Of a stretch of 41,977 nt of DNA, positions 1,453 through 31,870 are shown in pieces. The stretch lies in the IMG/VR virus record IMGVR_UViG_3300045988_017181; one strand, 5' to 3'. The notes below the pieces were generated by a model. That model made no database searches. It saw only the letters and a list, made by a program, of their open reading frames with translations, and had not been told where the DNA came from. The DNA is from a virus. Within the stretch, counting starts at the first letter, position 1; every line of letters starts with the position of its first letter. A program made the translations under genes and the position numbers.

Positions 1453-4400
1453 TCAGTTATCACCTCTTGCTAGCTTGAATGTATACCCTTTATCCTTATA
1501 TCTGTCTACACCCTTAGAGGTACCTTTAGGGCTGTGCCTATCTTCAGTTACCATCACACCTCCGATATTGGACGTATAGAATCCATACAGGGACTCCATA
1601 GACTCCTCTAGCCATTCTTCGGTTAGTTCATTAATACCTTCATCAGCATCTACGCCCATGAAGTCCACAAGGTATTTAACTCCGATTGCCAAAGCATCCA
1701 GACGGTCATCATGAATAAGGGCACCCCTATCAACAGTGATACGAGTGAGCTGATAGAAACAAGCATATTTGTAGTCAGATTCAGGTACGGTAGAGTAGTC
1801 ATTCCTGATACACTCAGGAGTGACACACATTTTATGGTTTGAGATTACAGGTTCAAGAGTATCAATGATACGCAGTTCTTTTTGTCCTGTGGATTTGACT
1901 TCAGTAACCCCGCAGTTACTATAGGTTTTCTTTAGTACAGGTTCAAATAGTTTGATGTACATCCCGTCACCAAAATTACCCTCAATGACTACTTCATTGA
2001 CTTTGTACTTCTTAGCTACCTTAGCGAGCTTATTGAGGACTACATCAGAATAACCTCCCAATAGACCGCCTACTTCCATGACGTAGATGTAGCCGTTAAG
2101 GTAATACAAGATTGCATAACCAGTTTCGTCTTTCGATTCTATGAAATTTCAACAGCTTTCCACCCCTTATGGTGCTTACGAGTTCCCTTAGCTACCTTAC
2201 GAAGGTTCTGAGGGGTAAGCTCATGTTCTCTACAGAACTCTACAAGAGATTCTGGGGTGTAGTTGTTACCATTGGGGTCTGTAATAAGATAACGCTTACC
2301 AGTACCGTAGTTATGAGGGGTATCCCCCTTCTTAAACCTAGTATCAAAGCAATCTCTACATACAGTACCCGTTCTACGTTTAGGCATATACTTGTTGCAA
2401 ACGGAGCATCTAACGGTAGCTACGTCACCTCCTGCCCTGCTGTTCCAACCCATGTTTAGCTCAGGTCTCAACACATATTCCATGTTAAGAGCTTCAGCTT
2501 TAGGGAGCATCTTAATTAGAGAGATCTCAACATTTTCTTTACCAAGGTTCCTAAGGATTTCTCCTACAGGACGCTTTGAGCAGAAGTGCTGTGAGAGTCT
2601 ATAATTCAAAGATCTTCTAGTAATGCCAACATATCCACTTGCTAGGTCATTATTACCTTTTTCGTGAATATGGTAAACTTTGTACAAACGGGTTTTAGCT
2701 CTAAAGTTGTTGATTTTCATATTTATGTTTAGTAGTTGTTAATTACTTTCTTATGGTCGCCCATAAGTCCAGACTATATCTTTTTCACCCCTGTTTCCCA
2801 CTAACACTCAGCGGTACATAATAGTCGTTACACCTTCCTAAATTAGGCTTGGCTCGGTATTATCTCTTAGAGACGTTCACCGAATTTAAGGGTTTTATTT
2901 AATGACGAGGCAAGACAGTTCACCACGTCCCGAAGGGTCAACACATAGAATTTTATGTGTATATGGCACAACCTCATTAGAGGCTGCATGATAGTAGAAG
3001 TAAGAATCTCCCTTAAGGCCCATCGTAGGACACTCATCAACTGGAACCCTCTTAGAAGGCTCAGGGAGCCACGTGAGCTTCATTGGAGCCTCGTCTAAGG
3101 GGAACATACCTACGATGAGGTCACGAAGCCGTAGAGGGTATTTATCGGCGTCTGAGAGGGTCGTGTCAAGCATGAACTGCAGAGCGAAGCCTGCCTTACG
3201 ATAAGATAGTTCACGCTTCTGTAGATCTTCTTCAGAGAACCTAAGGGGGTCTGTAGGCTTACCTGCCCAACGCTTAGGATCCTTGTCGTACTTGTCAGCA
3301 ATGATAGAGGCCAATCTATCGCCATAGGAGGCTCTATGAGAGTCATCATAGGGATACCTAGCGGGATAGATTACAGCCGTGTATCCGCGCTCCTGTAGCT
3401 CGTTATAGAGGCTCATTTCATTCTGGGGGGTGCCCAGATAGATGATCTTTTTACCTTCACCAGGCTTTAGGACAGCGTCGAACTCTTTGACGAGCTCGAA
3501 CAACTGGTCTCTAAGAACCTGAGTGAAGGAATTAGATGGAACTTCCACCTTTATGTTAAGGTAAGGTCGTTAGTCTTACCCCATCGTCTTTTATTTGAGT
3601 CTACTGCGTTTTCAGTAGCAGTAACAAACTTACAATGATCCCTAGAGTAGAGTCCACAGTTGCCCTTCTTGATGTCCTTATCAAGGTGCATGCTAGAGTC
3701 CTTTTCCCATTCTTCATAGCCTTCTACCTCGTGAATAGTATTCAAGAAGGTAGTAAAGTTATGCCACCTAGGATCTACCTTACAGCCTACATAGCTAGTT
3801 TTGTAGTTACCATAAGCTCTCTTAAGCATGTTAGCCCACAGGTCATAGATCTTGCGGATGATGCTATTAGAGCCTCTAGCAGGGATTCTAATAGGAGACC
3901 CAATGAACCCTACACCATAGGCCGTAGGTTCCATAAAGTCTTCAAACTTACCTGCCTTAATGTTGCAGGTCTGAACATCAATGACTGTACCTGTCTTGAC
4001 AAACTGAATGACAGCCCTAGGATGCTTAACTTTACCATTAGGAAGTTTCTGCTTCTTAGTTCTAGACAGGATCTTAATAAGACCCTTAGGAGTTTCGTAA
4101 GTTTTGTTAATTTCGTACATAGTTATGTTCCTTATAATTGACGATGCTTCATATCTCTATGAAGACCAGACTATATCTTATACCAAAAGGTATCCCCATT
4201 TTTCGAGTCACTTGACCCTACATAATAGTCGTTACACCTGCTAAATAGCTCGGCTCGGTATTGTCTTTCCTAGTTAGGACTGAGTTCCACCGAATTTAAG
4301 GGGTTTAAAGACGACATGGTTAAAGTTTATCGTCTGCGACAATGATGTCTGCACGGGAACCTGTTAGCTGGCCCTTAATACCCACAGACTTAACTGAAGG

Positions 4401-4805
4401 TGAGTGGTCTGGCAGGGCAGGGCCTACATCAAAAAGGTTCTGAGTATCTCTTTGACCTTCTCTAGCCTTTAGGTGGCTCAGAAAGGGCAATTCATTGATG
4501 ATCTTCTTAATAAACGTAGCATTAGCGTCTGCTCGTTCTTTGTTGGCAGACACTACCATGATCTTAGTCTGTGGATCCCTCCAGAGACTCCAGACAACGT
4601 ATGCACACGTAATAAAGGATTTAGCTACACCACGGAAACCCATTAGGATCATGCGGTCACTAGGGGGGTTCTGTAGTAGCTTAGCAATGTCTACCTGCAA
4701 CGTGGTAGGAGAAGGCAACCCGATAGATTTCCAAACCAAAGAGGTAAATAGTGGGAAGTTCTCATAGTAGGGGAGTAGAGCTTTAGCCTCTTTCTCAGTT
4801 AACAC
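1453..4805 (-). CDS. Terminase large subunit (T7 gp19-like), split: join(4329..4805, 2922..3548, 1453..2133), ~594 aa
   Basis: The three ORF fragments are colinear with T7 gp19: [23 protein letters not shown]; ADIIVADD|VEVPSNS; DPSGRG|[17 protein letters not shown]; HDDRLDAL. Each fragment ORF runs 2-8 codons past the homology break into a stop. Probable GTG start at 4805 after GGGGAG. Confidence 0.9.
2134..2921 (-). mobile_element. Group I intron 2 in the terminase gene (788 nt)
   Basis: The 5' exon ends in U (GGT, 2922). P1 pairs GACGTGGT with GCCTCGTC (2904..2911), with a U-G at the splice site and one U-U mismatch. P/Q-like AAATTCGGTGAAC / ATACCGAGCC; R-like GTAACGACTATTAT (2815..2833); S-like AAGATATAGTCTGG (2769..2782). 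The intron ends in G (2134). Confidence 0.8.
2139..2720 (-). CDS. Intron-encoded GIY-YIG homing endonuclease (I-TevI-like)
   Basis: N-terminal KVYHI...GYVGIT..R...R..QH GIY-YIG signature, Cys-rich linker (CSVCNKYMP...CRDC), basic C-terminal DNA-binding-like tail. The stop lies 5 nt before the 3' splice site. Confidence 0.8.
   Translation of the reverse strand: MKINNFRAKTRLYKVYHIHEKGNNDLASGYVGITRRSLNYRLSQHFCSKRPVGEILRNLGKENVEISLIKMLPKAEALNMEYVLRPELNMGWNSRAGGDVATVRCSVCNKYMPKRRTGTVCRDCFDTRFKKGDTPHNYGTGKRYLITDPNGNNYTPESLVEFCREHELTPQNLRKVAKGTRKHHKGWKAVEIS
3549..4328 (-). mobile_element. Group I intron 1 in the terminase gene (780 nt)
   Basis: The 5' exon ends GACGAT (4334..4329) and pairs with GTCGTC (4315..4310), with a U-G at the splice site. 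R (4219..4237) and S (4166..4179) blocks are near-identical to intron 2. The hairpin after S (4147..4164) covaries with the intron 2 hairpin (2750..2767). The last intron nucleotide is G (3549). Confidence 0.8.
3551..4120 (-). CDS. Intron-encoded homing endonuclease, probable HNH (His-Me finger) type
   Basis: C-terminal MHLDKD...N..LYS...C.FVT..EN resembles the HNH_3 pattern. Sits inside the intron and stops 2 nt before the 3' splice site. Confidence 0.55.
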   Translation of the reverse strand: MYEINKTYETPKGLIKILSRTKKQKLPNGKVKHPRAVIQFVKTGTVIDVQTCNIKAGKFEDFMEPTAYGVGFIGSPIRIPARGSNSIIRKIYDLWANMLKRAYGNYKTSYVGCKVDPRWHNFTTFLNTIHEVEGYEEWEKDSSMHLDKDIKKGNCGLYSRDHCKFVTATENAVDSNKRRWGKTNDLTLT

Positions 4806-5049
4806 TCATGTCTCCCCTATAGGAATTCTCGAAGTTCTCCTTAGTAGCCTTCAGGAGCTTACTAAGTGCATTCTCTTCACCCTCCCCAGCCTTAGGGACA
4901 CAGTCAATGCCATTACGTTCAAGTTCCTTAATGATTGCATTATAGAGCTGTGGAGACCTCTTATCGGGGTTCCTAAGGTCATTAAGCATGTTCTGAAGCA
5001 TCTCCTCATGGATGTTCCCTAGGAGGCTCTCAAGTCCTTTATAGTCCAT
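4795..5049 (-). CDS. Terminase small subunit (T7 gp18-like)
   Basis: The RSPQLYNAI block matches T7 gp18. 84 aa, immediately upstream of and overlapping the large terminase. Confidence 0.75.
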
Positions 5050-5263
5050 TGTTCTTTTCCTTTCTTCTCTTTTCTAACCAAGGTTCTACCCAATGTTTTT
5101 TAATCATTGTGCAGATACCTACAAAAGTATAGATAATTGTGATGACGTACACCCAATCGCTAAGAGGTAACCCGAGAATCACAGCACTGGATACTGCCAA
5201 TGAAGGAGCTACCTGTGCTATGTTCTCTGCTAGGTTACCCGACTCCTCATCAAGGGCGCTCAT
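5039..5263 (-). CDS. Holin (T7 gp17.5-like, class II)
   Basis: 74 aa with hydrophobic helices. LSDWVYVITIIYTFVGI resembles T7 gp17.5 LNEWFYVAAIAYTVVQI. Basic C-terminus. Confidence 0.65.
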   Translation of the reverse strand: MSALDEESGNLAENIAQVAPSLAVSSAVILGLPLSDWVYVITIIYTFVGICTMIKKHWVEPWLEKRRKEKNNGL

Positions 5264-5679
5264 TCCTCAAAGAACTGCTCAAAGTTAGCTTTCTTGAACC
5301 CAGTGCCCTTTAGGAGCTTACCGTCTTCCCTGAATTGAGGGTTGTAGTTGCCTTCACTGTCATAGAACTTACTGGAGTATTCCTTAAGCAATTCATTCAT
5401 ACCTGCTTCAAGGTCGTAACCACAAGCATTAGCATACTGGATACAAACCCAGATAAGATCACACAGTTCCTTCATTTCGTTAGGGGTACCACTACGCTCC
5501 TTAAGAAATTCCTTGAACTCTTCAGCAATACACTTGCTATACAGGATTGTGCAATCCTTGTACAGTTGGGAGTCCTTCACTTGGTCATTTCTACAGTGCG
5601 TCTTCAGAAACCAGTTCGAAAGTTCCTTCTGGAGATTTCCGATAAGCTCTTTGGGTTTAGCTTCCATAGTATTCTTCAT
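5260..5679 (-). CDS. MazG-like nucleotide pyrophosphohydrolase
   Basis: All-alpha-looking 139-aa protein with an acidic EEFKEF..E and ELCDLIWV pattern typical of phage MazG-like proteins. Confidence 0.5.
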   Translation of the reverse strand: MKNTMEAKPKELIGNLQKELSNWFLKTHCRNDQVKDSQLYKDCTILYSKCIAEEFKEFLKERSGTPNEMKELCDLIWVCIQYANACGYDLEAGMNELLKEYSSKFYDSEGNYNPQFREDGKLLKGTGFKKANFEQFFEE

Positions 5680-5697
5680 TTTATTCTTTATCCTCTT

Positions 5698-7830
5698 TTA
5701 CATACTCTTTCGTTCATTAATTTCAGCCATCTTGGCATCGTTCATTCGGGAGTTACCGTTGATGTTAGAGTACCCCAAATAACCACAGACACGGGAAATG
5801 ACAGACAGGTTACTAGAGCCACAATAGGGGCACGTATTACCCACATTAAAGCTATGTTGGTGACAATCCTCACAGTAAGCCGCATCAAAGTTCACACCCT
5901 GATAGAACCCATGAGCCATGCCTCGAAGGATCGTGCTCGTGAGAGCCAGCTTATTCTCTGGGTTGTCAATACGGACATACTGGATGTGTCCACCCTCGAT
6001 AAGATGGAAAAGCTCAAACTCAAGATCCTGCTTTTCAAAAGGGGTAATGTCAGCAGACACATGGATATGGAAGGAATTGGTGAAGTAGGCTTTACCTTCA
6101 AATTCATCCTTAAGGTTATTCTTTGCACAATACTCATGGTACTGAGTCATCTGAGTACCACAAAGGGACTCTGCAGGGGTACCATAGAGTGCATAGAGAT
6201 ATCCGTCTTCCTTCTTAAACTTCTGCACTGCATCATAGATGAACTTAACGACATCCTTAGCCGCCTTCTGTCCCTCAGGGGTCTGAAGATCCTTACCCCC
6301 AGTAAAGAGGATAGCAAACTCATTCAAGGCAGAGATACCAAAAGATGCTGTCATATACTTGGTAAGCTCACCTACCTCATCTTCAGGCTTAAGAAAGCCC
6401 TTATAGAAACCTCCCTGACAGAATGCCATAGGATTCGTGCTAGCCTTAGCATGCTTAATCATATCATAGCGACGCTTAAGGAATCCTCGAATCTGTTCAA
6501 GGTTCACCATAAGCTCTTCCCAGAAGTTACCCTTAGATGCCTTATAGATCAACGGAAGGTTGAGAGACACCGCACCAATGTTGCATCGCCCAACAGACAC
6601 ATACTCGTTAGTCTCAGGATCCTTCCAAGGAGTGAGGTACGCCCTGCAACCCATCGGATGGATCACACACTGCTTATTAGACGCTCTGTAGGTTTCAGAC
6701 ACAGTGCCATTAGGAGCGTTAATAGCCAGAAAATCAGGGTACATACACTTACTGGAACATTCAACAGCCTTCTCGAACACGTTAGCGTGCTCATCACTGC
6801 CGTGTTGTTCCCAATCATAGAGATACACGAGCTTAGGGAACACAACCTGTTTACCCCCATGGCCTTTCATGCGGGTATCAAGGATGGTCTCACAAATCAC
6901 CTCAAGAAACTCCTTGTCATCCTCAGGGAGATCGTTGCTCCACTCACCAAAGGTAAGCGTAGTGAACGCAAAGTCACCACGAGAACACGGAACAGTATTG
7001 AGCTTCAGTTCAAGAGACTGGAAGCCTTGCCCAAGCTCACGCTTGAGATCTTGAATAGCCATTGCACATGCTTCATCGAATTCCATATTGCACTGGTCAA
7101 AGTATTTCTTAAACGCATGGTCATACGTTTTCTTAGCATACGGGAGGAGCGTCTTGTCAATCTGAGGGATAGTGAACCCACCGAACTGCTGTGCAGTAGC
7201 TACAAGGGTGATGTCACCGATCACCTGAAGGGCACTAAGGACACTCGTAGGCTCCGTATAGGTGACATTGGACATGCTAAAGCCACCCTTAAGAACAGTA
7301 GCCATGTCAAAGAGACAGCAGTTGATGGATCCAAAGATCATGTCTCGAAGGTCATGGATGTAATACTTACCGACCTTAGTAGCCTCTTTCTCTTCCTTAG
7401 TGAGGTAGAATTGCTTATACAACTGCTTAGTCAGATAGCCCTTGATAAGTGAACCTTTTGTAGACACAAGGGAACTATCGAAGTTGGCGTTTTCCTTGTC
7501 TCCCAAAAGGAGAACAGTGTCAGCCTCATTCTTAACAGCTTCGAAAGCCTTAGCGTAGGTGTTCTTATAGTCTCTGAACTCCTTATAAGATTCTCCGATC
7601 TTCGGCACATACTTACAAAGAGCTTCAATGACAATAGAGTGAATCTTATCAGTAGGAACCTCGTCATAGTTGCTGTAGGCAAGGCTCTCGATATAACCCC
7701 TAATCTTACCAATGTCATGCTCAGAGTACGTAGCGTTAGCCCTCTGGGCGGCCTTATGAATAGCTACTTCAATCTTATCCCAGTCCCAGCCTTCATTGGT
7801 ACCATCTTTCTTAATTACTTCCAGTTCCAT
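5698..7830 (-). CDS. nrdD: Anaerobic (class III) ribonucleoside-triphosphate reductase
   Basis: N-terminal ATP-cone-like VIKKDGTNEGWDWDKI; C-terminal Zn ribbon CEDC...CPYCGSS; glycyl-radical motif RVCGYLGY. 710 aa. Confidence 0.9.
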   Translation of the reverse strand: MELEVIKKDGTNEGWDWDKIEVAIHKAAQRANATYSEHDIGKIRGYIESLAYSNYDEVPTDKIHSIVIEALCKYVPKIGESYKEFRDYKNTYAKAFEAVKNEADTVLLLGDKENANFDSSLVSTKGSLIKGYLTKQLYKQFYLTKEEKEATKVGKYYIHDLRDMIFGSINCCLFDMATVLKGGFSMSNVTYTEPTSVLSALQVIGDITLVATAQQFGGFTIPQIDKTLLPYAKKTYDHAFKKYFDQCNMEFDEACAMAIQDLKRELGQGFQSLELKLNTVPCSRGDFAFTTLTFGEWSNDLPEDDKEFLEVICETILDTRMKGHGGKQVVFPKLVYLYDWEQHGSDEHANVFEKAVECSSKCMYPDFLAINAPNGTVSETYRASNKQCVIHPMGCRAYLTPWKDPETNEYVSVGRCNIGAVSLNLPLIYKASKGNFWEELMVNLEQIRGFLKRRYDMIKHAKASTNPMAFCQGGFYKGFLKPEDEVGELTKYMTASFGISALNEFAILFTGGKDLQTPEGQKAAKDVVKFIYDAVQKFKKEDGYLYALYGTPAESLCGTQMTQYHEYCAKNNLKDEFEGKAYFTNSFHIHVSADITPFEKQDLEFELFHLIEGGHIQYVRIDNPENKLALTSTILRGMAHGFYQGVNFDAAYCEDCHQHSFNVGNTCPYCGSSNLSVISRVCGYLGYSNINGNSRMNDAKMAEINERKSM

Positions 7831-7839
7831 TTAATCCTC

Positions 7840-8712
7840 TTACTTATTCTTCCAAGTGTCGACTACAATGGCGGGCTTACTAGCTTCATCAAGCTGTAGT
7901 CTAGCCTCAATTCCTTCATAGAAGACCATATTGGCAATAGTGTTAAACATAAAATCTGCAGACCTCTTAGCAATAACAGAGCCGTGATTATCTACTCTGA
8001 GATAGGATCTAGCAGGAGTAATAATACCAGAGGCAGGGATACTACCAAAGGTAATGGTGCAAGACATCTTGTCTCGCTCTGCAAGGACTACACCGTCCTT
8101 ATTAAGGGTGATGACATTACCCACGTTGGTAAAGGCTTGCGTAGCAATAACCTCAGTGCCATTCTTTTTTAGCGTAAGAGTAGCATTGGTACCCTCAGGA
8201 AGCCCAGAGAAACCAACTCTAACGGTGACGTCATATGCCTCATTGGCAGGGGACACCCAATTAAAACTGTTGGCGCTATCAGAACAGTTGTTAATGTCCT
8301 GAACAATGTACTCCCAAGGGAGATCAAAGGATGCCTTGTTGAGGTCTACGAGATCAACCTCAGTAGACCATACGGATGCAACCTGATGAGCATACTCATT
8401 GAGGGTGCTAAGGCTTACTCTGATGTCATGGTGAGCCTCAGGGTCGTTATTATGCTTGTCGACAGTAACAGTATCAGCAGAAGGCACCTCCGAAGAATTG
8501 GCATTAGCGAACTGCTTAACTGCAACAATCTCCTGAGGAGTAAGCTGTGACGGAGTATTACCCATCAGCTTAGTTGCAACATTGTCATCCTCGCTGTACA
8601 CGAGGGTGTCGAAGGTAACCGTAGGGATCACAGGCTTTGTCGTATAGAAGCCCTTTCTAGCTTCATACTCACAGGCACCTACATTACCATCCCAATAAAC
8701 TTGAATATTCAT
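7840..8712 (-). CDS. Hypothetical protein (290 aa)
   Basis: Long ORF in the gene-dense minus-strand context. No motif recognised. Confidence 0.6.
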   Translation of the reverse strand: MNIQVYWDGNVGACEYEARKGFYTTKPVIPTVTFDTLVYSEDDNVATKLMGNTPSQLTPQEIVAVKQFANANSSEVPSADTVTVDKHNNDPEAHHDIRVSLSTLNEYAHQVASVWSTEVDLVDLNKASFDLPWEYIVQDINNCSDSANSFNWVSPANEAYDVTVRVGFSGLPEGTNATLTLKKNGTEVIATQAFTNVGNVITLNKDGVVLAERDKMSCTITFGSIPASGIITPARSYLRVDNHGSVIAKRSADFMFNTIANMVFYEGIEARLQLDEASKPAIVVDTWKNK

Positions 8713-8714
8713 AA

Positions 8715-9252: not shown

Positions 9253-9314
9253 ATTCAGCCATAATATATCCCTTTCTAGTCATGTAGACTATTATTAATA
9301 GTTAGTAACTTAGA

Positions 9315-9359
9315 TAAAGAAAACTAAGGTACTCATAGTTACCGAAAGAATACCTTAGT
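9315..9359 (-). terminator. Intrinsic-type terminator after the tail-fibre module
   Basis: Perfect 9-bp stem ACTAAGGTA/TACCTTAGT (9351..9359 and 9323..9331) with a 19-nt loop, followed on the minus strand by TTTTCTTT (9315..9322). Confidence 0.5.
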
Positions 9360-22010: not shown

Positions 22011-23908
22011 TTAAACCTGAGCAGTCTTAACGATAACACCAACGGCTTCGGGACGAAGACCGCCGTGACCCCAAACGGACATACTTGTCCGCTAGACTAT
22101 CGCTTACCCCTTAGGGTTCTTTTCATTTAGTCGTTGCTTGTGCCAATAAAGGATCATCTCAGCATCATGTCTTTTAAGCCTAAGATGCGGGATGATTGCC
22201 TTTAATACTTTAGTAGCAGTTCCGTAGAACGATGCACCAAAGTTTAATTTAAACTCTTTAATATTTTCTTTCGTTGTCTTGTAGATCTTACCGCCGTACG
22301 TGCTTTGGATTAGTTCTACAGAACAAACATCAGATTTTTGTACATGAATCTTAAGCCAGTGTTCTCTACCGGAACACCTAAGATACCCATCACCATCAAT
22401 ATATCCTGCCAACCATGAAGGACTGGCATTCTTCTTATATCTAGTTGGCCCTGTATCAGCTCTAGATTCTTTAGCAAACTTCCTAAGCTCATCCACCTGC
22501 TCTTGGGTGAGATTAACTCCTGAAAGTTCTCTACGTTTATCAAGCATTCTTTGGAAATGCTTTCCTTTAATCACCATGTGTTTGATGATGTGCGGCAAGA
22601 ACTTTTCTAAGTCATTCTTACTCGACACCCGCCAACACTTTTGATTCTTAACTTCTATATTGCGGATGCTCCCTACATCGTAGGCATCTCTTAGATCTTG
22701 AAGGAGCTTAAAGCCTCTCCCTCTATTGTCGATCTGAACAATTGAAAACTGTAGACATATACGAAAATGACCGTCTACAGTCTTATTAAAGTAAAAACTA
22801 AGGGCTCCGTCTGCATCTACGAACCCCGCAACATATTTATTTAGAGTTTCATTATAGTTACTCATCTCTGTATACACCTATACTGTTTTATGAGTTATTT
22901 GGCTTCAATCGGGTTGTCTAAAAAGAGTTTCCCGTTATTTAGAAAAGATTACGCGACAGGTTAGTTTATCGCGTACTTGGCAATGATCTGGTCAGCCTGA
23001 TATTCAGCTCGACGAGCACGTTCCATAGCGAGATCCTTGAGCTTCACCGTACCAACAGCGGAACGATGGAAGACAATGCCCTGAAGACCCGCAGCCTGGA
23101 TACTCGCACTAAGAGCGTGCTTGCCATCAATGCCCTCATTCAGAAGGTGCGGAACTTCAATGACTTCAAAACCGCAAATCGTCTGGAGCTTGCCCGTGTT
23201 CGGATCAAAGAGGGCATGATAGTTAGCCGCATCAGGCATAAGAGCCTTCATGACAGCAGAGTAGCCTTCAGGCGTGAGAAGGCAATAGCGGTCACCCTGC
23301 GGGACGTAGTTCTTCGTCATCTGAGCACGAGCCGCGAGGAGACCCTCAAGGATCTTATTGCCATACTTAGCTTCCTGCGAAATCTCAAGACCCGTAACAA
23401 ACTCAAAGGCCTTACCCGTACCGGGAACCTTGTCAGTATCAGTATCATTGTCGGGAATGTTACCGTCCTTGAACTTAGCGTCCTTAGCGGCCTCATTGGC
23501 AAGCTCATTGATAATAGCACAGTCAGCGCCCATAGCGAGAGCTTCACCAAGCTGACGGGAGTATTCAACTCGAACGTCATAATGGTTCATCGCATCGTCG
23601 ATATCCGTGATAAGGCAGTCAGCCGTAAGGAGACCGTCAATAGCGATGACACGCTCATTGTGTTCCATCTTCTTACGCTGGTCATCAAGGGAGTTACCCG
23701 GAGCAAGATACTTAGCACGGGTACGACCCATAACAGCGAACGAAGCACTCTTACCGTGCGAAATCGTTCGAACCTGATGACGAGACATCATAACGGAGGT
23801 GCGAGCAAAAGCAGTCAGAACTTCACCCGTGAAGACCTTCATAAAGAGTGCATCACGCTCGCCCGCAGAGAGAGCCTGACCAGGATTGGAAATACCAGTA
23901 ACAGCCAT
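22011..23908 (-). CDS. Major capsid protein (T7 gp10A-like), split: join(22968..23908, 22011..22083), ~337 aa
   Basis: The listed ORF ends ...ADQIIAKYAIN*. The T7-like C-terminus GHGGLRPEAVGVIVKTAQV* is encoded 884 nt downstream in a short frame. The spliced junction is predicted as ...AKYAI/MSVWGHGGLRPEA... Confidence 0.8.
22084..22967 (-). mobile_element. Group I intron in the capsid gene (884 nt)
   Basis: 8-bp P1: exon TACGCGAT (22975..22968) pairs with GTCGCGTA (22957..22950), with a U-G at the splice site. P/Q-like AATAACGGGAAAC / CAACCCGATT; R-like AACGACTAAATG and S-like AAGCGATAGTCTAGC near the 3' end. The last nucleotide is G (22084). Confidence 0.75.
22104..22877 (-). CDS. Intron-encoded LAGLIDADG homing endonuclease (two-motif)
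   Basis: YVAGFVDADGALSF and WLAGYIDGDGYL motifs. The track start is GTG (22877); the ATG at 22865 has an AGGTG RBS. The 3' end of the ORF overlaps the R element and P8. Confidence 0.85.
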   Translation of the reverse strand: MYTEMSNYNETLNKYVAGFVDADGALSFYFNKTVDGHFRICLQFSIVQIDNRGRGFKLLQDLRDAYDVGSIRNIEVKNQKCWRVSSKNDLEKFLPHIIKHMVIKGKHFQRMLDKRRELSGVNLTQEQVDELRKFAKESRADTGPTRYKKNASPSWLAGYIDGDGYLRCSGREHWLKIHVQKSDVCSVELIQSTYGGKIYKTTKENIKEFKLNFGASFYGTATKVLKAIIPHLRLKRHDAEMILYWHKQRLNEKNPKG

Positions 23909-24745: not shown

Positions 24746-24769
24746 TAGTTATCCTTTAGTTATTCAGGT

Positions 24770-24864
24770 GCTAGCTATGCTAGCTGTGTCTGCTGTGCTA
24801 GTGTCCTAGCTGTGCTAGTGCCCTAGCTGTGCTAGTGTTCTAGCTGTGCTAGTGTTCTAGCTGT
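24770..24864. repeat. Array of 17-bp units GCTAGTG(T/C)(C/T)CTAGCTGT (4 good copies plus a degenerate leader) between portal and scaffold genes
   Basis: Copies at 24797, 24814, 24831 and 24848. The unit is nearly identical to the 18-bp terminal unit. The last copy encodes the portal C-terminus (AQLEH*). Confidence 0.9.
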
Positions 24865-26450
24865 GCTTCATTGACAGCCATCTGTGCACCTGCGTCAATA
24901 CCCTGTTGCTGGGCATACTGTTCCATAGCGGCCTGTTGTTCTGCCTGAAGTTCTTCAGGAGTCTTCACTAGACCCGTAGCATCAATATGAGCCGCCGCAA
25001 AAATCCTAGTAGCAAGATTACCAACGTTGAGAGCCTGTAGAAACTCAGGGAACTGTTGCATCAATTGCAAAGCCTGAGCTAGATTGTTAAGATCCTGTCC
25101 TCTACCAAGGGCATCAATACCCGTGATGATGGAGGGTTCAATCTCTGCAATACTCTCGTCAATCACAGGGAGCAACCCCTGAGATTGCATCTGATTGTAG
25201 ACACAGGCAACGAGAGGAAGCTGTAGCTCCTGAGACAGGAGAGAATAGACACCACCTAGGGTATCCTCAAGTTCACCTGCAACGTACCTAATCTCTTCTG
25301 CGGTAACTCTGTCTCTACCCACAGCACCACTCTGGACTGCAGAGTTCAAGAGGAACGCATAAGACAAACGAGACTCAATCTGTTGAGCAGTAGTGAGTAC
25401 CGTCTGCATGTCCATGCTCTTATTGAGTTGCATGGGAACAACGTCCTCCATACGACCCCTAACAAAGGCACCGTTCTCTGCCTTAGACAAAGCCCTGATG
25501 TTAGTCTGACAAGCAGGAGACACGAGATAGAGAACCTTAGAGGCAATCATGGAGATATCCACAATGCTCTTAGAGAGATTCTCAAGGGAGATAAGGTCGC
25601 CAAGGTAATCCTCAACAAAGGATCTACCGTAGTGTTCACCGTCCTTCTTATTGAATCTAAGGGGAATCCAAGGACTCTTGTTTGCAGGATAAGTCTGCTC
25701 ACTACCCGCAACAGGTTCGCCTTCAATCTCCTGATAGGATTCCCACTGATAGGTGTCTCCGCTAGCCACACGGTAAATGTGAGTATAGATGTCTACCTTT
25801 TCGTTGATAGTCGGTTCACCAGAATCAGAGAGAACAGACTGCATGGAATCAGGAAGACTACCACGGGAAACAGTGTCCTTAGCGACAATCTGAAGGACAT
25901 TGCCGATAGCGTCTCTCTGAACAGCGTACTCACGAAGAGTATAGCACCTCATGCCACCTTCAGCAGGAGGAAGGAACAGAAGTGCATTGCCTGCAATGAT
26001 AAGTTGCTTAATGGCTTCAAAAAGAGTCGGCCTAAGAGACTGAGACTCCATGTACTTAATCATCTGTTGTTCCATCATGGACAAACCGTATTCGATATTG
26101 TCCTTCAGCTGGTCATCAGCAGACTCATTAAGAGCTACAGTCGACTCCGCGTCCAACCCCAGTCTAAAGAAAGGTTGATTAGGAGGCAACAGAGAAAGAA
26201 GAAGCTTAGAGGCAAGATTATTAAGACCCCTAGCACCCACAGAATTGTAAGGAGTGGAATAGTTAGTACCACCATCATCAGACTCCTTAGGAAAGAGCAT
26301 AGGGATCGTGTAGGTTGCACACTTCTCTGCTCTCTGGGTGTATGGGTCTCTGTCTGTCGTGAGTTTGTCATAGGTCGTCTTAGCGCCTTCAAGAGGGATA
26401 TTTCCTGCGGTATGTTCACTAGTTGCCATTCCAACCGTCCCACCCATCAT
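24849..26450 (-). CDS. Portal (head-tail connector) protein (gp8-like)
   Basis: 533 aa. Position and size match T7 gp8. The true start may be the internal MATSEH. Confidence 0.85.
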   Translation of the reverse strand: MMGGTVGMATSEHTAGNIPLEGAKTTYDKLTTDRDPYTQRAEKCATYTIPMLFPKESDDGGTNYSTPYNSVGARGLNNLASKLLLSLLPPNQPFFRLGLDAESTVALNESADDQLKDNIEYGLSMMEQQMIKYMESQSLRPTLFEAIKQLIIAGNALLFLPPAEGGMRCYTLREYAVQRDAIGNVLQIVAKDTVSRGSLPDSMQSVLSDSGEPTINEKVDIYTHIYRVASGDTYQWESYQEIEGEPVAGSEQTYPANKSPWIPLRFNKKDGEHYGRSFVEDYLGDLISLENLSKSIVDISMIASKVLYLVSPACQTNIRALSKAENGAFVRGRMEDVVPMQLNKSMDMQTVLTTAQQIESRLSYAFLLNSAVQSGAVGRDRVTAEEIRYVAGELEDTLGGVYSLLSQELQLPLVACVYNQMQSQGLLPVIDESIAEIEPSIITGIDALGRGQDLNNLAQALQLMQQFPEFLQALNVGNLATRIFAAAHIDATGLVKTPEELQAEQQAAMEQYAQQQGIDAGAQMAVNEAQLEH

Positions 26451-26486
26451 TCAATGATTGATTACCAACCATCATAACCCTCCACG

Positions 26487-26735
26487 TTAGACAAGGTTAC
26501 GGCCTGCACCTGCAGACACATCAGCATTCCCTGCCTTCTTAATTCTAAGACCCTTCTTACCCTTACGAAGCTGAACCTTTTCGGTTTCTTCCTTCTTCTC
26601 AGCTTCACCCTCAGGGTTCGTAAGCTCAAGCTCAGGAGCAGGAGCCTCAGGGGCACTCTGACCGCTGTTGCCTATACCAGTCACCTTATGGACAACATTC
26701 TTAAAGGTCTTCTTAATACCACTAAAAAGTCCCAT
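26487..26735 (-). CDS. gp7.3-like small virion protein
   Basis: Basic N-terminus (MGLFSGIKKTFKNVVHKV) and a C-terminal RKGKKGLRIKKAG...GAGRNLV tail resemble T7 gp7.3. Immediately before the portal gene. Confidence 0.5.
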   Translation of the reverse strand: MGLFSGIKKTFKNVVHKVTGIGNSGQSAPEAPAPELELTNPEGEAEKKEETEKVQLRKGKKGLRIKKAGNADVSAGAGRNLV

Positions 26736-27259
26736 TAAATTTCCTTGTAAAAAGTTTTGTACGAAGAGTAACCCAAGTGTTTCTCATAGGTATTTTCCAA
26801 CATCTTATTGTTGAGCGTGTTGGCGTTAGAGAAGGCTAGTAGTCTTACGTTAGTACATGCCCTATTTTCAAGAGCATAAGCCATTGCTCTAGACAAACCA
26901 AGACCCTTTTGGAAAGCTACAGTGCACTCTTCATTTAGAAAAGTTACTCCCTCAGGTGCATACCAAGGTCTCCCCCTAGACACTAGGGATGCACCCGAGA
27001 GAGCATTTTCTTTGTTATAGAAAACAAGGATGATGAAGTCTTCAAATTCACCACTAATGACACCCTTAAGAAACTTACGCACTACCTTTACGTCAGCATA
27101 TTTCTTAATGAAAGGGAGGGAGTCAGGGTCATCTTTGATGATCTTCGCACCCTTGTCGATGATCTGTTCTAGGATGTCTTCATCATTAGGTTGCAAGACA
27201 CCAATCCTAGACACGTTACTTAGGGATGTTAGTCCCTCTGCCAGAACCCACATAATCAA
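26735..27259 (-). CDS. GNAT-family N-acetyltransferase (gene 7 position)
   Basis: Acetyl-CoA motif-A-like VAFQKGLGLSRAMAYALE. The track start overlaps the upstream gene by 44 nt. A GTG 2 nt after the upstream stop (NVSRIG) is an alternative start. Confidence 0.55.
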   Translation of the reverse strand: MIMWVLAEGLTSLSNVSRIGVLQPNDEDILEQIIDKGAKIIKDDPDSLPFIKKYADVKVVRKFLKGVISGEFEDFIILVFYNKENALSGASLVSRGRPWYAPEGVTFLNEECTVAFQKGLGLSRAMAYALENRACTNVRLLAFSNANTLNNKMLENTYEKHLGYSSYKTFYKEI

Positions 27260-27410
27260 TCCTCAGAGCCTTCTTGCCCTTGTTCTTCTTGTGTTCTGCA
27301 GTTTCTACAGCACCCATTTCAGGAGCCTCAGGTTCGAGTACAGGTTGCTCAATGGCAGGAGCCTGAACCTTAACCTCAGGAACCTTAGGTTTACTAAAGA
27401 GTCCACCCAT
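27216..27410 (-). CDS. gp6.7-like small virion protein
   Basis: MGGLFSKPKVPE... and ...KGKKALRI resemble T7 gp6.7 (FSPKIKTP, GRKGLKV). Paralogous in outline to 26487..26735. Confidence 0.5.
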   Translation of the reverse strand: MGGLFSKPKVPEVKVQAPAIEQPVLEPEAPEMGAVETAEHKKNKGKKALRIDYVGSGRGTNIPK

Positions 27411-27610
27411 CAGTTATCTCCATTCTGTTTGTCGTGTTTATTTCTAAGGTAGGTAACAACCTGTTGAATACCTAGAAGAGTCTCATTACTCTTTTCATAC
27501 CAAATCATCTTTCGAATGTCAAAGACATCCTCAAGTTTCTCAATGAGATCCTTAGGAACATAAGGAAACTCTTCTTCTTCTTCAACAACATTGTTTTCTT
27601 CTTTGTTCAT
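27410..27610 (-). CDS. Hypothetical protein (66 aa, gene 6.5 position)
   Basis: ORF with ATG at 27610. Its SD appears to be separated from the ATG by a 42-nt hairpin (see finding). Confidence 0.55.
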   Translation of the reverse strand: MNKEENNVVEEEEEFPYVPKDLIEKLEDVFDIRKMIWYEKSNETLLGIQQVVTYLRNKHDKQNGDN

Positions 27611-27977
27611 AGAAATTCGGCGCGGAAACCTCTGTCTTCAGACAGGGGAGGAAGCGCCGTCCTCCTTTCTAAGTTCGGTTAAATAGGTGCTTCTCTTTTC
27701 GAGAAGCGTTTGGCGGATACCCGCAGGTTCCGCTTACACGGCCCGAAGGCCTGTTGACATCCTTCGCCAATGTTGGAAGGGGTTTGGTGCCTGCAACACC
27801 GCTCCTACCTCTCAGAGCTTTTAATCACAGGCCGCAGAGCGTGGAACTAGGATGTACATCCCACGGTGCCTATACATTCCCAACCAACGTAGCGCCTCTC
27901 GAAAGAGGGGCGCTGAGGCTAGTCAATAAAGGCTCTTTCAAGCCTCTGCCTTTAGGCAGGGGTTATTGACGTCTTCC
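27611..27977. ncRNA. Unclassified GC-rich, highly structured, ORF-free element (~370 nt); functional strand unresolved
   Basis: At least 10 local helices (plus coordinates): 27618-23/27654-59 enclosing 27629-36/27641-48; 27689-95/27701-07; 27713-16/27721-24; 27740-43/27748-51; 27761-65/27776-80; 27786-89/27797-800; 27891-900/27905-14; 27922-29/27963-70 enclosing 27943-50/27955-62. An 8-bp long-range pair joins 27647-54 and 27973-80. No ORF over 20 codons on the gene strand. Confidence 0.6.
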
Positions 27978-28003
27978 TCCTACCTAGGACTATTGATTTA
28001 ATT
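27978..28003 (-). promoter_or_regulatory. Phage-type promoter variant (AATTAAATCAATAGTCCTAGGTAGGA) just after the exonuclease gene (phi6.5-like position)
   Basis: About 20/26 match to the local consensus. A second, more degenerate copy lies at about 28008..28035. Confidence 0.5.
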
Positions 28004-28033
28004 AAAAATAGCCCTAGGGGGTATTAGTATTGA

Positions 28034-28798
28034 TTAAAAAGGATTGTACTTCTTGGGTAGACCCTCAGATTCACTTAAAGGATAATCTTCATAGTGCAAG
28101 ATTCTAGCCATTGTTGCCTCTCTAATGGCATCCTCTTCAGTAAGACCCTGAGACTTGAAGGCTTTCAAAACCTCAGGCCACCATTCAGAATCAGGATGCC
28201 CATTAAGGAGCTTATTGGCTTTCACAGGGCCATAAGTGGGACACCCCTTATAGCCGTCTGTAACGTCCCCTACTAGGGTCTGATAGCACAGCCATTTCTT
28301 GGAGTCCTTCTCAGTGATGTTATGCAAGACATCATTACCGAAATCATAGAAGTAACCGGGGATTGTCTTGAAATCCTTGTCCATAGACACTGCGACACAA
28401 ATATCTTTATAGACAGGACTAGTGCAGTAGATACCCACAACATCATCAGCTTCAAGGTACTTGACTGTATGAGAAATGTAGGTTTCTTTAATCTTGTCTA
28501 CAAGACCTTTGTAACAACAAGGTTTACGATTAGATCGCCTATTGGACTTATAGTCAGGATTGTAGGCTTTCCTAAAGTTATCCTCATCGGAGAAACAGAA
28601 TACATAGGTAATCTCTTCGCCAACGAAATGCTTATTCAGCTTCTCATCAATAGCAATAAGCATGTCGGTAAAGTAATCCCATGCGTCATCTACTTCAGCA
28701 TGACAAGTCCAAAGACCATCACCCCAGTCGATATCCTTCTGGACAGCAGAGGATGCCTTAAAGGCTAGAATATCACCGTCTACAAAAGCATATCTCAT
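28034..28798 (-). CDS. 5'-3' exonuclease (T7 gp6-like, FEN family)
   Basis: MRYAFVDGDILAFKAS N-terminus with acidic clusters typical of the PIN/FEN fold. Synteny after the DNA polymerase. Confidence 0.8.
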   Translation of the reverse strand: MRYAFVDGDILAFKASSAVQKDIDWGDGLWTCHAEVDDAWDYFTDMLIAIDEKLNKHFVGEEITYVFCFSDEDNFRKAYNPDYKSNRRSNRKPCCYKGLVDKIKETYISHTVKYLEADDVVGIYCTSPVYKDICVAVSMDKDFKTIPGYFYDFGNDVLHNITEKDSKKWLCYQTLVGDVTDGYKGCPTYGPVKANKLLNGHPDSEWWPEVLKAFKSQGLTEEDAIREATMARILHYEDYPLSESEGLPKKYNPF

Positions 28799-28998
28799 TA
28801 TTCACAAGCCTTAAGGATGGCGTATGCCTTACAAGTGAGCCTCCAATAATTAGTGGCTTCACTAAAGTAATTAAGGGCTGTAATATGTCCCCTAGATGCC
28901 GCCTCAGCAATCAGCTTGGCATTCTCACGACAGAAGTCCGCCTGAAGTTTAGGATTGTTCTGATCAATATATTTAAGGAAATTAAGATACTTATTCAT
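28798..28998 (-). CDS. Hypothetical protein (66 aa)
   Basis: The ATG at 28998 overlaps the upstream stop (AATGAATAA). The longer track ORF (to 29151) overlaps the upstream gene and is rejected. Confidence 0.45.
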   Translation of the reverse strand: MNKYLNFLKYIDQNNPKLQADFCRENAKLIAEAASRGHITALNYFSEATNYWRLTCKAYAILKACE

Positions 28999-29323
28999 TT
29001 TCTTTCTGAGGTCCCTCATAGTAAACACTCTCTTCTTCCCAATCAACTTCATAGCCAAGACGTTCAAGAATCTCATAAAAGATTTCTTTGTCAGTCCAGT
29101 CTTCATAGAGTTTACAGGGATTTGGGATGTGCATAAAAAGCAGTTTACCATTCAATCGAACTTCGGCACCACCTGCAGTCCCATAAACAGGATCCGTCTT
29201 ATAGAGCCACTTAATGTCAACAACGCTCTTTTTGTTGGTCTTACACAATGCCATTACCTCCTTAGGTTCATTCTTCTTAAGAACCCTTTCAATCTCTTCT
29301 ACGGTCATAGGTCTACGAATCAT
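28991..29323 (-). CDS. Hypothetical protein (110 aa)
   Basis: ATG preceded by AAGGAG, directly after DNA polymerase exon 2. Confidence 0.55.
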   Translation of the reverse strand: MIRRPMTVEEIERVLKKNEPKEVMALCKTNKKSVVDIKWLYKTDPVYGTAGGAEVRLNGKLLFMHIPNPCKLYEDWTDKEIFYEILERLGYEVDWEEESVYYEGPQKENE

Positions 29324-29332
29324 AGCTACTCC

Positions 29333-31870
29333 TTAGTGACAATCGAACCAGTTGGCACCAATCTTGCCTTCGGTGTCCAACTGACAATTAAACTTAAAGA
29401 ACTCCTGAGTCTGTCTCATGGATTCCTGTGCAATTCGCACACAGTCTTCTGCAATCTCTTTTGTTCTGCAGGCAACCTGTACCTCATCCTTACCGTTTCC
29501 CATATTGCTACGGGTGTCGGACTATCTCTTTACAGCCTATTGGTATTAGCTGTAGTAGGCATTTCGAGACTAGGGGGATCTCACCCCTAGCCCCTACGGT
29601 TTACACCTAGTCTCTACACTTCCATTCTCGAATCCATTTGCACGCAGATGAAAACGAGACACCAAAGACTTCACCTAGCTTAGTACCTGTACACTTATAA
29701 AGTTTCCAATACTCCTTAGCTTTAGCCTTTCTATCAGCATATCTAGTGGAGTTATGCTCGACTTTATGATCGACGATCTTAACTAGCTCAAGGTGGCTAA
29801 GGTTACAACAGGCACGATTATGACACTCGTGATGAATCTCATAGCCTTCAGGGACTTCGCCATTAGCTTCTTCCCATACAAGTCTGTGAGCCATAATCAA
29901 GGGCTTTCTACCTTTACCCTTATACCTGTGATCTCTAATCCTTAGATAACCATCGTGATTCAGTCTATGTGATGTGGAGACTATGCAACCGTTTTGATCC
30001 TTAGTCAAGACCATAGGTTTACCACGCATAGTTCCTCCAATGTTTAGCTCGGGATTGCCCCAGAGGGGTTTCCCCGAATTAACCTACTTTAACGTGCACA
30101 ATGAAGTTTATGCACCCACGCCATCATGGCAAAGTCTCCGTCCCAACCATGCTTGTAGCCTGCTTTACGCATATTCTCCTCAACAAGACACACCCACTTC
30201 TTACAAATAAGGGCGCCTGCAGACTGCAGGATAGTGTTCAGAGCCGAGTGAGGGCTTCGCACATAAACAAGGCGGCGATCAAGCCCAAGAATATGGTGAG
30301 AAATATTAAGAGTAGGGCAATCAGGGTGGACACGTTTCTTCCATTTTACTTTTTGAGTGTTCCCAATCCATTCAGAGGACTCAACAAGAGCCTTATCAAT
30401 GGAACTACAGAGCTTCTTGTATGCAGGGACAGCCTTAAAGAATCTTTCCTTAAGAGCTTTGCCATCCTTAGCAGTGCCATTAATGACAGCTCCAAGTTTA
30501 CCGTCACCACCACCATAGAGCATGCAGTAGATCATGGTCTTCGCTTGGTCTCTCGTGGGAAGCCCTGCCATCTTCTGATTATGGGTGTGAATGTCACCCT
30601 CAAGGATTTCCTTTATATAAGCACCGTTGTCAAAAGGAAACAGGAAAGACCCAAAGCACCGAAGTTCCAAACCAGAAGCGTCGATACCTGCCTCAAACCA
30701 GCCTTTAGGAACTGTGAACAGAGACCTGCACTCCTTACCGTATGGAGACCTTCCTGCAGGAACTTGTGCAACATTAGGATATGAATGTGTTGCACGACCA
30801 GTAACAGCACCGTTAGGATTAACAGAACCGTGAATACGGTAGTATCCATCTTCATCTTCCTTCATAAGCTTAAGCCAAGCGTTGTCACCCTCAGCAAGCT
30901 GTGCGATACGCTTGTTAATCAGCAGGTACTCAAGGATCTTAGGTGTCAGAGGGATACCCATAGCAGACTGAAGGGTGTCTTCATCAACCTTAGGGGCACC
31001 AGTAGGTGTAACCTCAGTAGGCTCCCAACCTCTTTCCATAAGCACCTTAGCAATGTGACTACGGGAATTAGGATTGAATGTAACCTCCTCATACTGAGGA
31101 TAAGGAACGCCTGCTTTAATTCCTTTCTTAGCGTTATCTCGCTTGTAGATCTTGTCTCCCTTGTAGACAGTCCAAGAGCCTACCTCAGAGACAAGGCTTT
31201 CATAGATCTCCTGTCTCTTTGCAGAGAGTTCAGCATAGAGCTTTACTGCCGCATCTTTATCAAAGACAAACCCATTACGTTCCTGCTTAGCCATGACCCA
31301 AGCAATGTCATGCTCAAGCTGAATGGCCTTCAAAGGGTAACCCTTAGCCATCAGCTTATGGAACAACTTAAGGGTAACCACAACGTCCTGTTTGTTGTAC
31401 TCATACATTTCAGGAGTAAACTTGTCCCAAGCACCCTCATGTTCGCCATAGGTGCCCTTCAGTTCACCCATACGGTAACCATAAGCCTTCAGGCTGTGGG
31501 AACCATAGAGAGCCTTAGGGAGCCTACCAGAACGCATAAGACCAACGTCAGTGTCCTTGATATTCGAGTAGATCAAACGAGCAAGTACAAGAGTGTCAAT
31601 ACAGACATCTCGAACATCAAATGCAAACCTCTCCCCCTTGAGCTTCTTAAGAGCAGGGATGTCAAATTTGCAGATATTGTGACCAACGATGCTGTACCCA
31701 CTAGTACCATACTTATTCAAGGCATCGAAGAACTCATCAAGATCAGTGTAACCAGTGTACAAATCCGTATAAGAATCGTACAACCAACCACACCAAAACC
31801 TCTTGGTCGTATCAAGCAACCCATCAGTTTCAATATCGAACACAATAAATTTGTCTTTAATTGTCAGCAT
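29333..31870 (-). CDS. DNA polymerase (T7 gp5-like, family A), split: join(30110..31870, 29333..29488), ~638 aa
   Basis: Motif A GIDASGLELRC; motif B RDQAKTMIYCMLYGGG. The ORF breaks inside motif C (...MAWVH|KLHCAR*). The rest, DEVQVACRTKE...QLDTEGKIGANWFDCH*, matches the T7 C-terminus (HDEIQVGCRTEE...LLDTEGKMGPNWAICH) and lies 621 nt downstream. Confidence 0.9.
29489..30109 (-). mobile_element. Group I intron in the DNA polymerase gene (621 nt)
   Basis: P1: exon GTGCAT (30115..30110) pairs with GTGCAC (30099..30094), with a U-G at the splice site. P/Q-like TTAATTCGGGGAAAC / CAATCCCGAGC before the ORF; S-like AAAGAGATAGTCCG after it. The last nucleotide is G (29489). Confidence 0.8.
29607..30029 (-). 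CDS. Intron-encoded HNH homing endonuclease
   Basis: GYEIHHECHNRACCNLSHLELV...DH..H HNH motif. 140 aa, inside the intron. Confidence 0.85.
   Translation of the reverse strand: MRGKPMVLTKDQNGCIVSTSHRLNHDGYLRIRDHRYKGKGRKPLIMAHRLVWEEANGEVPEGYEIHHECHNRACCNLSHLELVKIVDHKVEHNSTRYADRKAKAKEYWKLYKCTGTKLGEVFGVSFSSACKWIREWKCRD

Follow-up and report, generated by a model that had tools for sequence, protein, structure and literature searches.

What are the four segments that interrupt three essential genes of a small gut phage? The question is raised by IMG/VR virus record IMGVR_UViG_3300045988_017181, a stretch of 41,977 nucleotides that was analysed at its full length (hereafter the window) and that is the complete genome (~41.9 kb) of an uncultured T7-like phage (Autographiviridae) of the human gut. 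In this genome terL, the gene of the large terminase subunit, is interrupted twice, and the major capsid and DNA polymerase genes are interrupted once each. A reading of the bare sequence, which we call the original prediction, had proposed group I introns with endonuclease genes. Our analysis upholds this proposal: the interruptions are very probably four mobile group I introns, each carrying a gene for a site-specific endonuclease. All four are exact insertions with respect to empty alleles, their removal restores the reading frames, and all contain elements of a ribozyme core.

The boundaries were set by blastn against three intron-less GenBank contigs from human faeces (MT835695, MT838157 and MT836074). 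Compared with the uninterrupted terL, capsid and polymerase alleles of these relatives, the window contains four exact insertions on the minus strand, which divide the three genes as follows.

4329..4805, minus strand: terL exon 1, amino acids 1-159, ending in IIVADD, from the alignment to the intron-less relative L001; the GTG start at 4805 is provisional.
3549..4328, minus strand: terminase intron A, 780 nt, absent from L001.
2922..3548, minus strand: terL exon 2, amino acids 160-368, from VEVPSN to DPSGRG.
2134..2921, minus strand: terminase intron B, 788 nt, absent from L001.
1453..2133, minus strand: terL exon 3, amino acids 369-594, beginning KDETGY, stop codon included.
22968..23908, minus strand: major capsid gene exon 1, amino acids 1-313 and the first two bases of Met314.
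22072..22967, minus strand: capsid intron, 896 nt, absent from L002, L004 and 61 of 80 related loci.
22011..22071, minus strand: major capsid gene exon 2, from the last base of Met314 to the stop codon, reading GHGGLRPEAVGVIVKTAQV.
30110..31870, minus strand: DNA polymerase exon 1, amino acids 1-587, ending in MMAWVH.
29489..30109, minus strand: DNA polymerase intron, 621 nt, absent from L003.
29333..29488, minus strand: DNA polymerase exon 2, amino acids 588-638, beginning DEVQVACR, stop codon included.

Joining the exons gives a continuous TerL of 594 amino acids (junctions IIVADD/VEVP and DPSGRG/KDETG), a continuous capsid protein of 333 amino acids, in which the intron splits the Met codon of AKYAMGHGG, and a continuous DNA polymerase of 638 amino acids (junction AWVH/DEVQ). 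These translations confirm that each intron lies within a conserved peptide block. The capsid gene is identical to a gene (L266) on which a Gp10A-like Pfam domain was found. The predicted ligated-exon junctions are GCAGACGAT/GTGGAAGTT, GGACGTGGT/AAAGACGAA, AGTACGCGAT/GGGTCACGG and GGGTGCAT/GATGAGGTA, which can also be written GTCGCAGACGAT/GTGGAAGTTCCA, TCGGGACGTGGT/AAAGACGAAACT, AAGTACGCGAT/GGGTCACGGCGG and GCGTGGGTGCAT/GATGAGGTACAG. Together the introns amount to 3085 nt, or 7.35% of the window, in line with the ~3.1 kb and ~7% first estimated. Seven of the eight boundaries originally proposed were exact; the capsid intron ends at 22072 and not at 22084, a difference of 12 nt, and the proposed end would add four residues that are absent from every relative. 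Inteins were considered for all four insertions and ruled out, since the lengths (780, 788, 896 and 621 nt) include values that are not multiples of three and the host frame meets stop codons inside the introns.

The four introns share the same layout at their 5′ ends. The upstream exon always ends in U, and a U.G pair, read directly from the sequence, closes a P1 of 6-8 bp. All four begin with AAAC or GAAC and end in G, and the internal guide starts 11-14 nt into the intron. In each case, a P10 of 4-7 bp forms between the start of the downstream exon and the bases that immediately precede the guide. The common P1 organization that had been proposed, with its (A/G)AAC start, nearby guide and U-G at the cleavage site, was thus found in 4/4. 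Three introns match the Rfam group I model RF00028, for which the gathering score is 50 bits: intron B lies above it (53.5 bits), while intron A (44.7 bits, E 2.6e-8) and the polymerase intron (37.5 bits, E 3.7e-6) lie below. The covariance check suggested with the original prediction therefore supports three elements, more than the single one that would have counted against it. For the fourth, in the capsid gene, support comes from its exact boundaries, a full canonical core and compensatory changes. As predicted, the open reading frame (ORF) lies in P6 in the capsid and polymerase introns, and downstream of the core, beyond P9, in both terminase introns.

These elements suggest how the genes could function. 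Once transcribed, the intron would form P1 between its internal guide and the last bases of the upstream exon, the U.G pair marking the cut site. Free guanosine would cut at this pair, P10 would bring in the downstream exon, and the exons would be joined at the terminal G. In the spliced messages, the terminase would regain its Walker-B and nuclease motifs and the polymerase its motif C (HDE), and the capsid protein would be whole again; the endonuclease gene is looped out of the ribozyme, in P6 or in the P9.1 hairpin. In a co-infected cell, the endonuclease would cleave alleles of the gene that lack the intron, and these would then acquire an intron copy through repair (homing).

The ORFs encoded by the introns are the following.

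3551..4120, minus strand: intron A ORF, 189 amino acids, homing-endonuclease-like, putative nuclease.
2139..2720, minus strand: intron B ORF, 193 amino acids, GIY-YIG domain and I-HmuI NUMOD-like DNA-binding domain.
22104..22865, minus strand: capsid intron ORF, 253 amino acids from the ATG, two-domain LAGLIDADG endonuclease.
29607..30029, minus strand: polymerase intron ORF, 140 amino acids, HNH endonuclease.

Three of these ORFs pass the Pfam cut-offs (GIY-YIG plus NUMOD-like, LAGLIDADG and HNH_3). The intron B ORF matches PF01541 with 25.9 bits (cut-off 22.6) and PF22083 with 28.5 bits (cut-off 27). The capsid ORF matches PF00961 (E 1.6e-11) and has the motifs GFVDADGA and AGYIDGDGY; sequence matches in the PDB to I-OnuI, I-SmaMI and I-CreI cover both halves, and tblastn gave three distant matches in two phages (Pseudomonas phage HHBS10_2 and Pseudoalteromonas phage J2-1). 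The polymerase ORF matches HNH_3 (E 5.4e-16) and phrog_6254 (E 3.6e-32). The claim of four endonuclease genes thus stands by domain for three ORFs; the fourth, in intron A, is homing-endonuclease-like only by PHROG and fold. It belongs to phrog_2081 (E 1e-38) and is 44% identical to the ORF of the intron at the same site in Klebsiella phage vB_Kp_Z1. Its AlphaFold2 (AF2) model has a predicted local distance difference test (pLDDT) score of 90.8 and matches, in the BFVD, widespread phage proteins (E 5e-14), some of which are named homing endonuclease or I-HmuI NUMOD-like. No match was found by sequence in Pfam, NCBIfam or the PDB, and the fold search of the PDB gave a weak match limited to the N-terminal beta-barrel. 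At the C-terminus of the model, a beta-beta-alpha unit with an invariant LDKD and N171 is compatible with a possible His-Me finger.

The polymerase intron is of the subgroup IA2 type and lacks P2; P1 (GUGCAU/GUGCAC), P10 (CUUCAUU/GAUGAGG), P3, P4, P5, P6 with the ORF inside, P7, P7.1-GUA-P7.2, P8 and P9 are all present. Homologues with 65-73% nucleotide identity occupy the identical site in ~40 T7-like phages, and in phage 13a the RefSeq annotation gives the polymerase gene as a two-part join at this site. The MAFFT alignment of the polymerase introns mis-registered P3′ and P8 between divergent groups, so the helices were checked per sequence. Between the window, 13a and Aeromonas phage PT2, helices P3, P4, P6, P7.1, P7.2, P8 and P9 pair with different sequences. 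The self-splicing introns of PhiI and W31 lie at the same site, E. coli Pol I position 881 in motif C (VH/DE) (PMC3428280). Among relatives of the four introns, only these have published splicing. The intron of Pf-WMP3, which was modelled on those of PhiI and W31, is likewise of type IA2, lacks P2, contains P7.1-GUA-P7.2, and has an HNH ORF in P6a, the location found in PhiI and W31 (PMC3428280). By site and predicted structure, the polymerase intron is a member of this published PhiI/W31 family; it differs in that the window phage belongs to a distant gut lineage and the helix sequences differ through compensatory changes.

In terminase intron A, we identified P1 (GACGAU/GUCGUC), P10 (CCAU/GUGG) and a P3-P9 core at ~4147..4328. 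On the 3′ side of the core, P9.1 (CAUCGUC...GACGAUG) encloses the ORF and is followed by P9.2 (GGUAAG/CUUACC) and the tail UUAACAUAAAG; the CAUCGUC strand comes directly after P9 and its GACGAUG partner is found 33 nt short of the 3′ splice site. Contig L161 (IMGVR_UViG_3300045988_026372) has a natural form of this intron without the ORF, of ~238 nt and starting after GCAGACGAT. There P9.1 is a simple intact hairpin, CAUCGUC-AAUUAUAAA-GACGAUG, so the ORF sits in intron A as an insert within the loop of P9.1, and comparison of the two sequences places at this hairpin the exact point where the endonuclease gene was inserted or lost. In Klebsiella phage Henu2_3, the site-A intron repeats this P9.1/P9.2 arrangement, although the sequences are not the same.

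Intron B has P1 (GACGUGGU/GCCUCGUC), P10 (GUCUU/AAGAC) and a core at ~2750..2921 made of P3, P4, P5, P6/6a, P7, GUA-P7.2 and P9. A long-range helix, AUGAAAAUCAACA/UGUUGAAAUUUCAU, encloses the ORF; interrupted and 12-13 bp long, it joins the start-codon region to the end of the ORF. It would close the loop and mask the start codon, a function that we propose from the pairing. In both terminase introns GUA and P7.2 are present and P7.1 is reduced to UUAU.

The terminase sites are also filled in deposited phages whose TerL proteins are only 30-40% identical to that of the window: site A in Edwardsiella phage DT115P1 and Klebsiella phages vB_Kp_Z1 and Henu2_3 (L005, L006 and L008), and site B in Vibrio phage VEN and Klebsiella phage Henu2_3. 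Their introns score 38-64 bits with Rfam. Compared with these homologues, the terminase introns have compensatory changes in P1, P3, P5, P6/6a, P7.2, P8, P9 and P9.1; for intron B against VEN and Henu2_3 these fall in P1, P3, P6 and P9. Moreover, P1 covaries with the exon sequence between Henu2_3 and the window. In the deposited genomes (Henu2_3, which is L008, PQ394119.1, as well as L005, L006 and L007), the terminase is listed as two or three coding sequences (CDS) beside a gene called 'HNH/GIY-YIG/homing endonuclease', and the introns are unannotated.

The helices of the capsid intron were assigned by hand and follow the canonical order P3-P9. They are P1 UACGCGAU/GUCGCGUA, P10 ACCU/GGGU, P3 UCUUUUC/GAAAAGA, P4 CGGG/CCCG, P5 UCU/AGA, P6 GCCAA/UUGGC with the ORF inside, P7 GACUA/UAGUC, P8 ACCC-UAAG-GGGU and P9 GGAC/GUCC, with an R-like ACGACUAAA and an S-like AAGCGAUAGUC; neither P7.1 nor P7.2 is present, so that this intron was given no subgroup. 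A GGGGUUC inside the ORF was tried as a strand of P4 or P8 and rejected, as the segment varies like coding sequence among copies (GCTGGTTTC). All 15 homologous insertions in related contigs are 894-896 nt long and end GUUUG/GGG. Among 11 distinct copies, 98.6% of cells are paired, against 27-46% when the partners are slid by 1-3 columns. P9 shows a compensatory change of two pairs (GGAC/GUCC to UAAC/GUUA), those in P1 and P6 stay within wobble pairing, and in P8 a variable loop tops a constant stem. A covariance model built from the capsid core alone finds its own two halves. In ~207 kb, counting both strands, its other matches lie only inside genuine intron cores and are weak when taken alone: first VEN over the full length (E 0.07), then Henu2_3 and the intron at TerL residue ~179 of a relative.

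The distribution of the introns among relatives was surveyed in 240 related loci from IMG/VR, fetched with the three spliced proteins (the best 80 loci per gene). Insertions were found at eight or more sites in the three genes: TerL residues 159, ~179, 368 and ~423, capsid residues 52 and 314, and polymerase residues ~446/451 and 587. Five of the eight are Rfam-positive; capsid 314, TerL ~179 and polymerase ~446/451 show clear group I hallmarks instead. Several sites that are empty in the window are filled in relatives, namely capsid residue 52 (L062/L069), TerL residues ~179 (L135/L165) and ~423 (L136), and polymerase residues ~446/451 (L230/L233). Conversely, empty and filled alleles were found at each of the four window sites, as the comparison of related genomes proposed at the outset was meant to score.

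The introns are also often more conserved than the exons around them. For intron A the median identity is 92%, compared with 81-85% for the 400-nt exon flanks, and the polymerase intron has 97.7%, compared with 81% and 93% for its flanks, the intron exceeding both in 14/14 loci. In the two most divergent genomes, intron B is 95% identical where the flanks are 70-75% identical. The capsid intron reaches 88% where its flanks have 66-84%. Presence and absence at eight sites, together with this conservation, supports active homing. The ongoing intron traffic that had been suggested is thus strongly supported, the sequences pointing to introns that are decoupled from their host genes, as recurrent homing predicts.

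Several points weigh against four functional, mobile introns in one genome. The intron A ORF lacks any recognised nuclease domain, and the histidine of its putative motif is not invariant, which weakens the idea of an HLDKD HNH motif; because LDKD and N171 fit a His-Me finger but the histidine varies, we call the protein homing-endonuclease-like and its chemistry putative. Intron B does not have the conserved P8 helix. RF00028 did not match the capsid intron, and the isolated region searched with permissive filters gave noise only. The capsid copies are 97% identical, so that covariation is thin (two compensatory pairs), and the cross-model match, at E 0.07, is a weak one. The window was probably assembled from a metagenome, and the linkage of all four introns depends on that assembly, except for the terminase pair. 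Finally, splicing activity and endonuclease cleavage specificity are predictions from sequence for all four introns.

These points allow three alternatives. In the first, at least one element, above all intron B, has decayed, no longer splices on its own and needs a helper factor, or the genome is defective. After P3′ (AGGGGU), intron B has only 3 nt, GAA, before J8/7 (AAAGAUAUAGUC), and the Rfam alignment deletes the P8 segment (59 model positions to 0), while the homologues at the same position keep the hairpin, with 4 bp in VEN (AGGCGCAAGCCU) and 7 bp in Henu2_3. Some Bastillevirinae introns, moreover, splice in vivo and not in vitro (PMC11878797). A literature search for natural group I introns without P8 returned unrelated papers only. 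However, the loss of P8 is common to all eight related intron B copies (L141-L143, L146 and L167-L169 among them), including those that are so much better conserved than their terL flanks. The intron thus spread after it had lost P8. That a deletion should spread into divergent genomes inside an essential gene argues that intron B still splices. Its P1, P10 and other helices are intact, and unspliced TerL would stop 8 codons into the intron. We therefore regard decay as unlikely.

The second alternative is that the four-intron set is an assembly chimera of polymorphic introns from near-identical phages, and that no single virion has all four. Introns are present or absent among close contigs from the same kinds of samples, they lie 7-18 kb apart, which is beyond the span of short reads, and none of the 32 relatives in which all three genes were sampled has the same combination. 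On the other side, positions 1..55 and 41923..41977 of the window are identical, so that the assembly closes on itself, giving a complete genome. TerL sites 159 and 368 were filled together in 0/80 sampled loci, but an independent ENA contig, 99.96% identical to the window, has both terminase introns together; co-occurrence of the capsid and polymerase introns with this pair was not confirmed from independent contigs. Among the 32 contigs, nine have no intron, 13 have one, eight have two, one has three and one has four, the last (contig 3300014761_000009) with a set different from that of the window. A chimera is therefore, in our judgement, a minor possibility, even a little less probable than decay.

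The third alternative, a LAGLIDADG gene without a ribozyme that is removed or tolerated in some other way in the capsid gene, is very improbable: it would account for the lack of an Rfam match, even for the isolated insertion, and of any DNA homologue by blastn among 50,697 phage records, but the insertion is 896 nt long, which is not a multiple of three, and its frame meets stops (hence no intein). The protein whose Met codon it splits is essential and highly conserved. U.G at the 5′ site, P1, P10, P3-P9 in order, R-like and S-like sequences and a terminal G are all present. The 762-nt ORF within P6 accounts for the lack of an Rfam match, since introns of relatives that likewise have an ORF in P6, with clear R, S and P7.1-GUA-P7.2 signatures, are missed too. 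Four mobile group I introns thus remain the reading that we favour.

Group I introns with homing endonucleases are textbook selfish elements. One comparison is phage T4, a 169-kb myovirus with three introns. Like the window, T4 combines several group I introns (td, nrdB and nrdD (sunY)) with homing-endonuclease ORFs at conserved catalytic motifs in a phage of a Gram-negative host, and the ORF of the sunY intron also lies downstream of the core. Unlike T4, the window has four introns in 42 kb, and they occupy structural and packaging genes as well as a replication gene.

Closer parallels for the terminase introns are found in the Klebsiella phages Henu2_3 and vB_Kp_Z1, Edwardsiella phage vB_EtA_DT115P1 and Vibrio phage VEN, with the same sites (after ADD and after G(R/C)G) and related cores. 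Henu2_3 has both terminase sites filled, although its site-A intron is without a full ORF. The site-B introns of VEN and Henu2_3 keep P8, and the introns of VEN and the Edwardsiella phage keep P7.1, unlike their counterparts in the window. In the Bastillevirinae and Twort-like phages, terminase and polymerase genes are split by two or three group I introns (PMC11878797), and introns of Staphylococcus phages have 70-84% identity to the cores of introns A and B over short stretches. These are, however, large myoviruses of Gram-positive hosts, and the paper on the Bastillevirinae reports introns in terminases and in genes of nucleotide and DNA metabolism alone, with none in a capsid gene (PMC11878797). 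A precedent for the major capsid gene of a tailed phage is offered by the cluster J mycobacteriophages, an unrelated siphovirus lineage in which introns in capsid and tail genes are described (PMC3706429); the likeness is one of description.

For the T7-like phages themselves, PMC3428280 calls introns rare, and PMC9523250 and PMC9610469 mention them in passing. In our literature search, which was incomplete, the papers on T7-like phages described single polymerase introns only; none reported introns in a terminase or capsid gene of these phages, or two or more introns in one of them. The suggestion that the intron load is unusual holds against this literature; it has to be qualified by Henu2_3, with its two terminase introns, and by the related contig that also has four, so that the load of the window tops the range without being unique. 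The elements are well known in kind, and their number and patchy spread are unusual for the T7-like family.

An element of another type was found between the genes. A full-length HEARO/IscB guide (omega) RNA lies at 27611..27970 on the minus strand (Rfam RF02033, 139 bits, E 5e-29), as an exact insertion of 360 nt that separates the ATG of a 66-amino-acid ORF, downstream of the exonuclease gene, from the ribosome-binding site. In ~34 related contigs the site is empty and reads GGAGGAAGAC/ATGAAC (also written TAGGTAGGAGGAAGAC/ATGAA). The element has a GC content of 54%, compared with 44% for the genome, and has no nuclease gene: iscB is reduced to a few codons of its N-terminal end and its last ~22. 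The same guide RNA heads an IscB of ~413 amino acids (RRXRR and HNH) in a 177-kb viral contig (L259), and further viral contigs, unrelated to these, contain mini-copies of 321-336 nt. The right end adjoins ATGAA in every copy sampled, and the left flanks differ. From these features, it may be a non-autonomous RNA-guided homing element. We tentatively raise the possibility, which we hold to be less likely than its negation, that this gut lineage is an arena of competing homing elements, with at least eight polymorphic sites in three essential genes, at least three endonuclease families, a spreading P8-less splicing ribozyme, and an IscB guide-RNA element perhaps homing with a nuclease supplied in trans.

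The remainder of the genome is that of a T7-like phage. All annotated genes are on the minus strand and follow the T7 order: RNA polymerase, single-stranded DNA-binding protein (SSB), endonuclease I, amidase, primase-helicase, DNA polymerase, exonuclease, portal, scaffold, capsid, tail tube, internal virion proteins, fibre, and small and large terminase subunits. By TerL, the closest cultured phages are Autographiviridae of Ralstonia and Delftia (~63% identity), which makes a gut betaproteobacterium a guess at the host; every near relative is an uncultured contig of human faecal or gut origin. The phage also encodes NrdD (anaerobic ribonucleotide reductase), a ThyX-like thymidylate synthase and two tRNAs.

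5698..7830, minus strand: nrdD.
33819..34853, minus strand: thyX-like gene.
34827..34911, minus strand: tRNA.
35048..35121, minus strand: tRNA.

The listed start of the thyX ORF overlaps the first tRNA, and the true start is therefore probably further downstream. The first 700 nt of the window contain several imperfect repeats of ~60-130 nt each. Positions 1299..1360 gave a weak match to an Rfam microRNA family on both strands (E 0.18 and 0.38), which suggests a near-perfect palindromic hairpin in the non-coding end region.

The window and its relatives show that a small podovirus can hold four such elements, 7% of its DNA, in packaging, capsid and replication genes. It offers a compact natural system for homing dynamics, for marker exclusion in co-infection, and for the trimming of ribozyme cores through loss of P2, P7.1 and P8. 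In practice, deposited genomes, and virome pipelines that depend on the terminase, capsid and polymerase as marker genes, mis-annotate the split forms of these genes as fragments. If the P8-less intron B does self-splice, the minimal natural group I core would be redefined.

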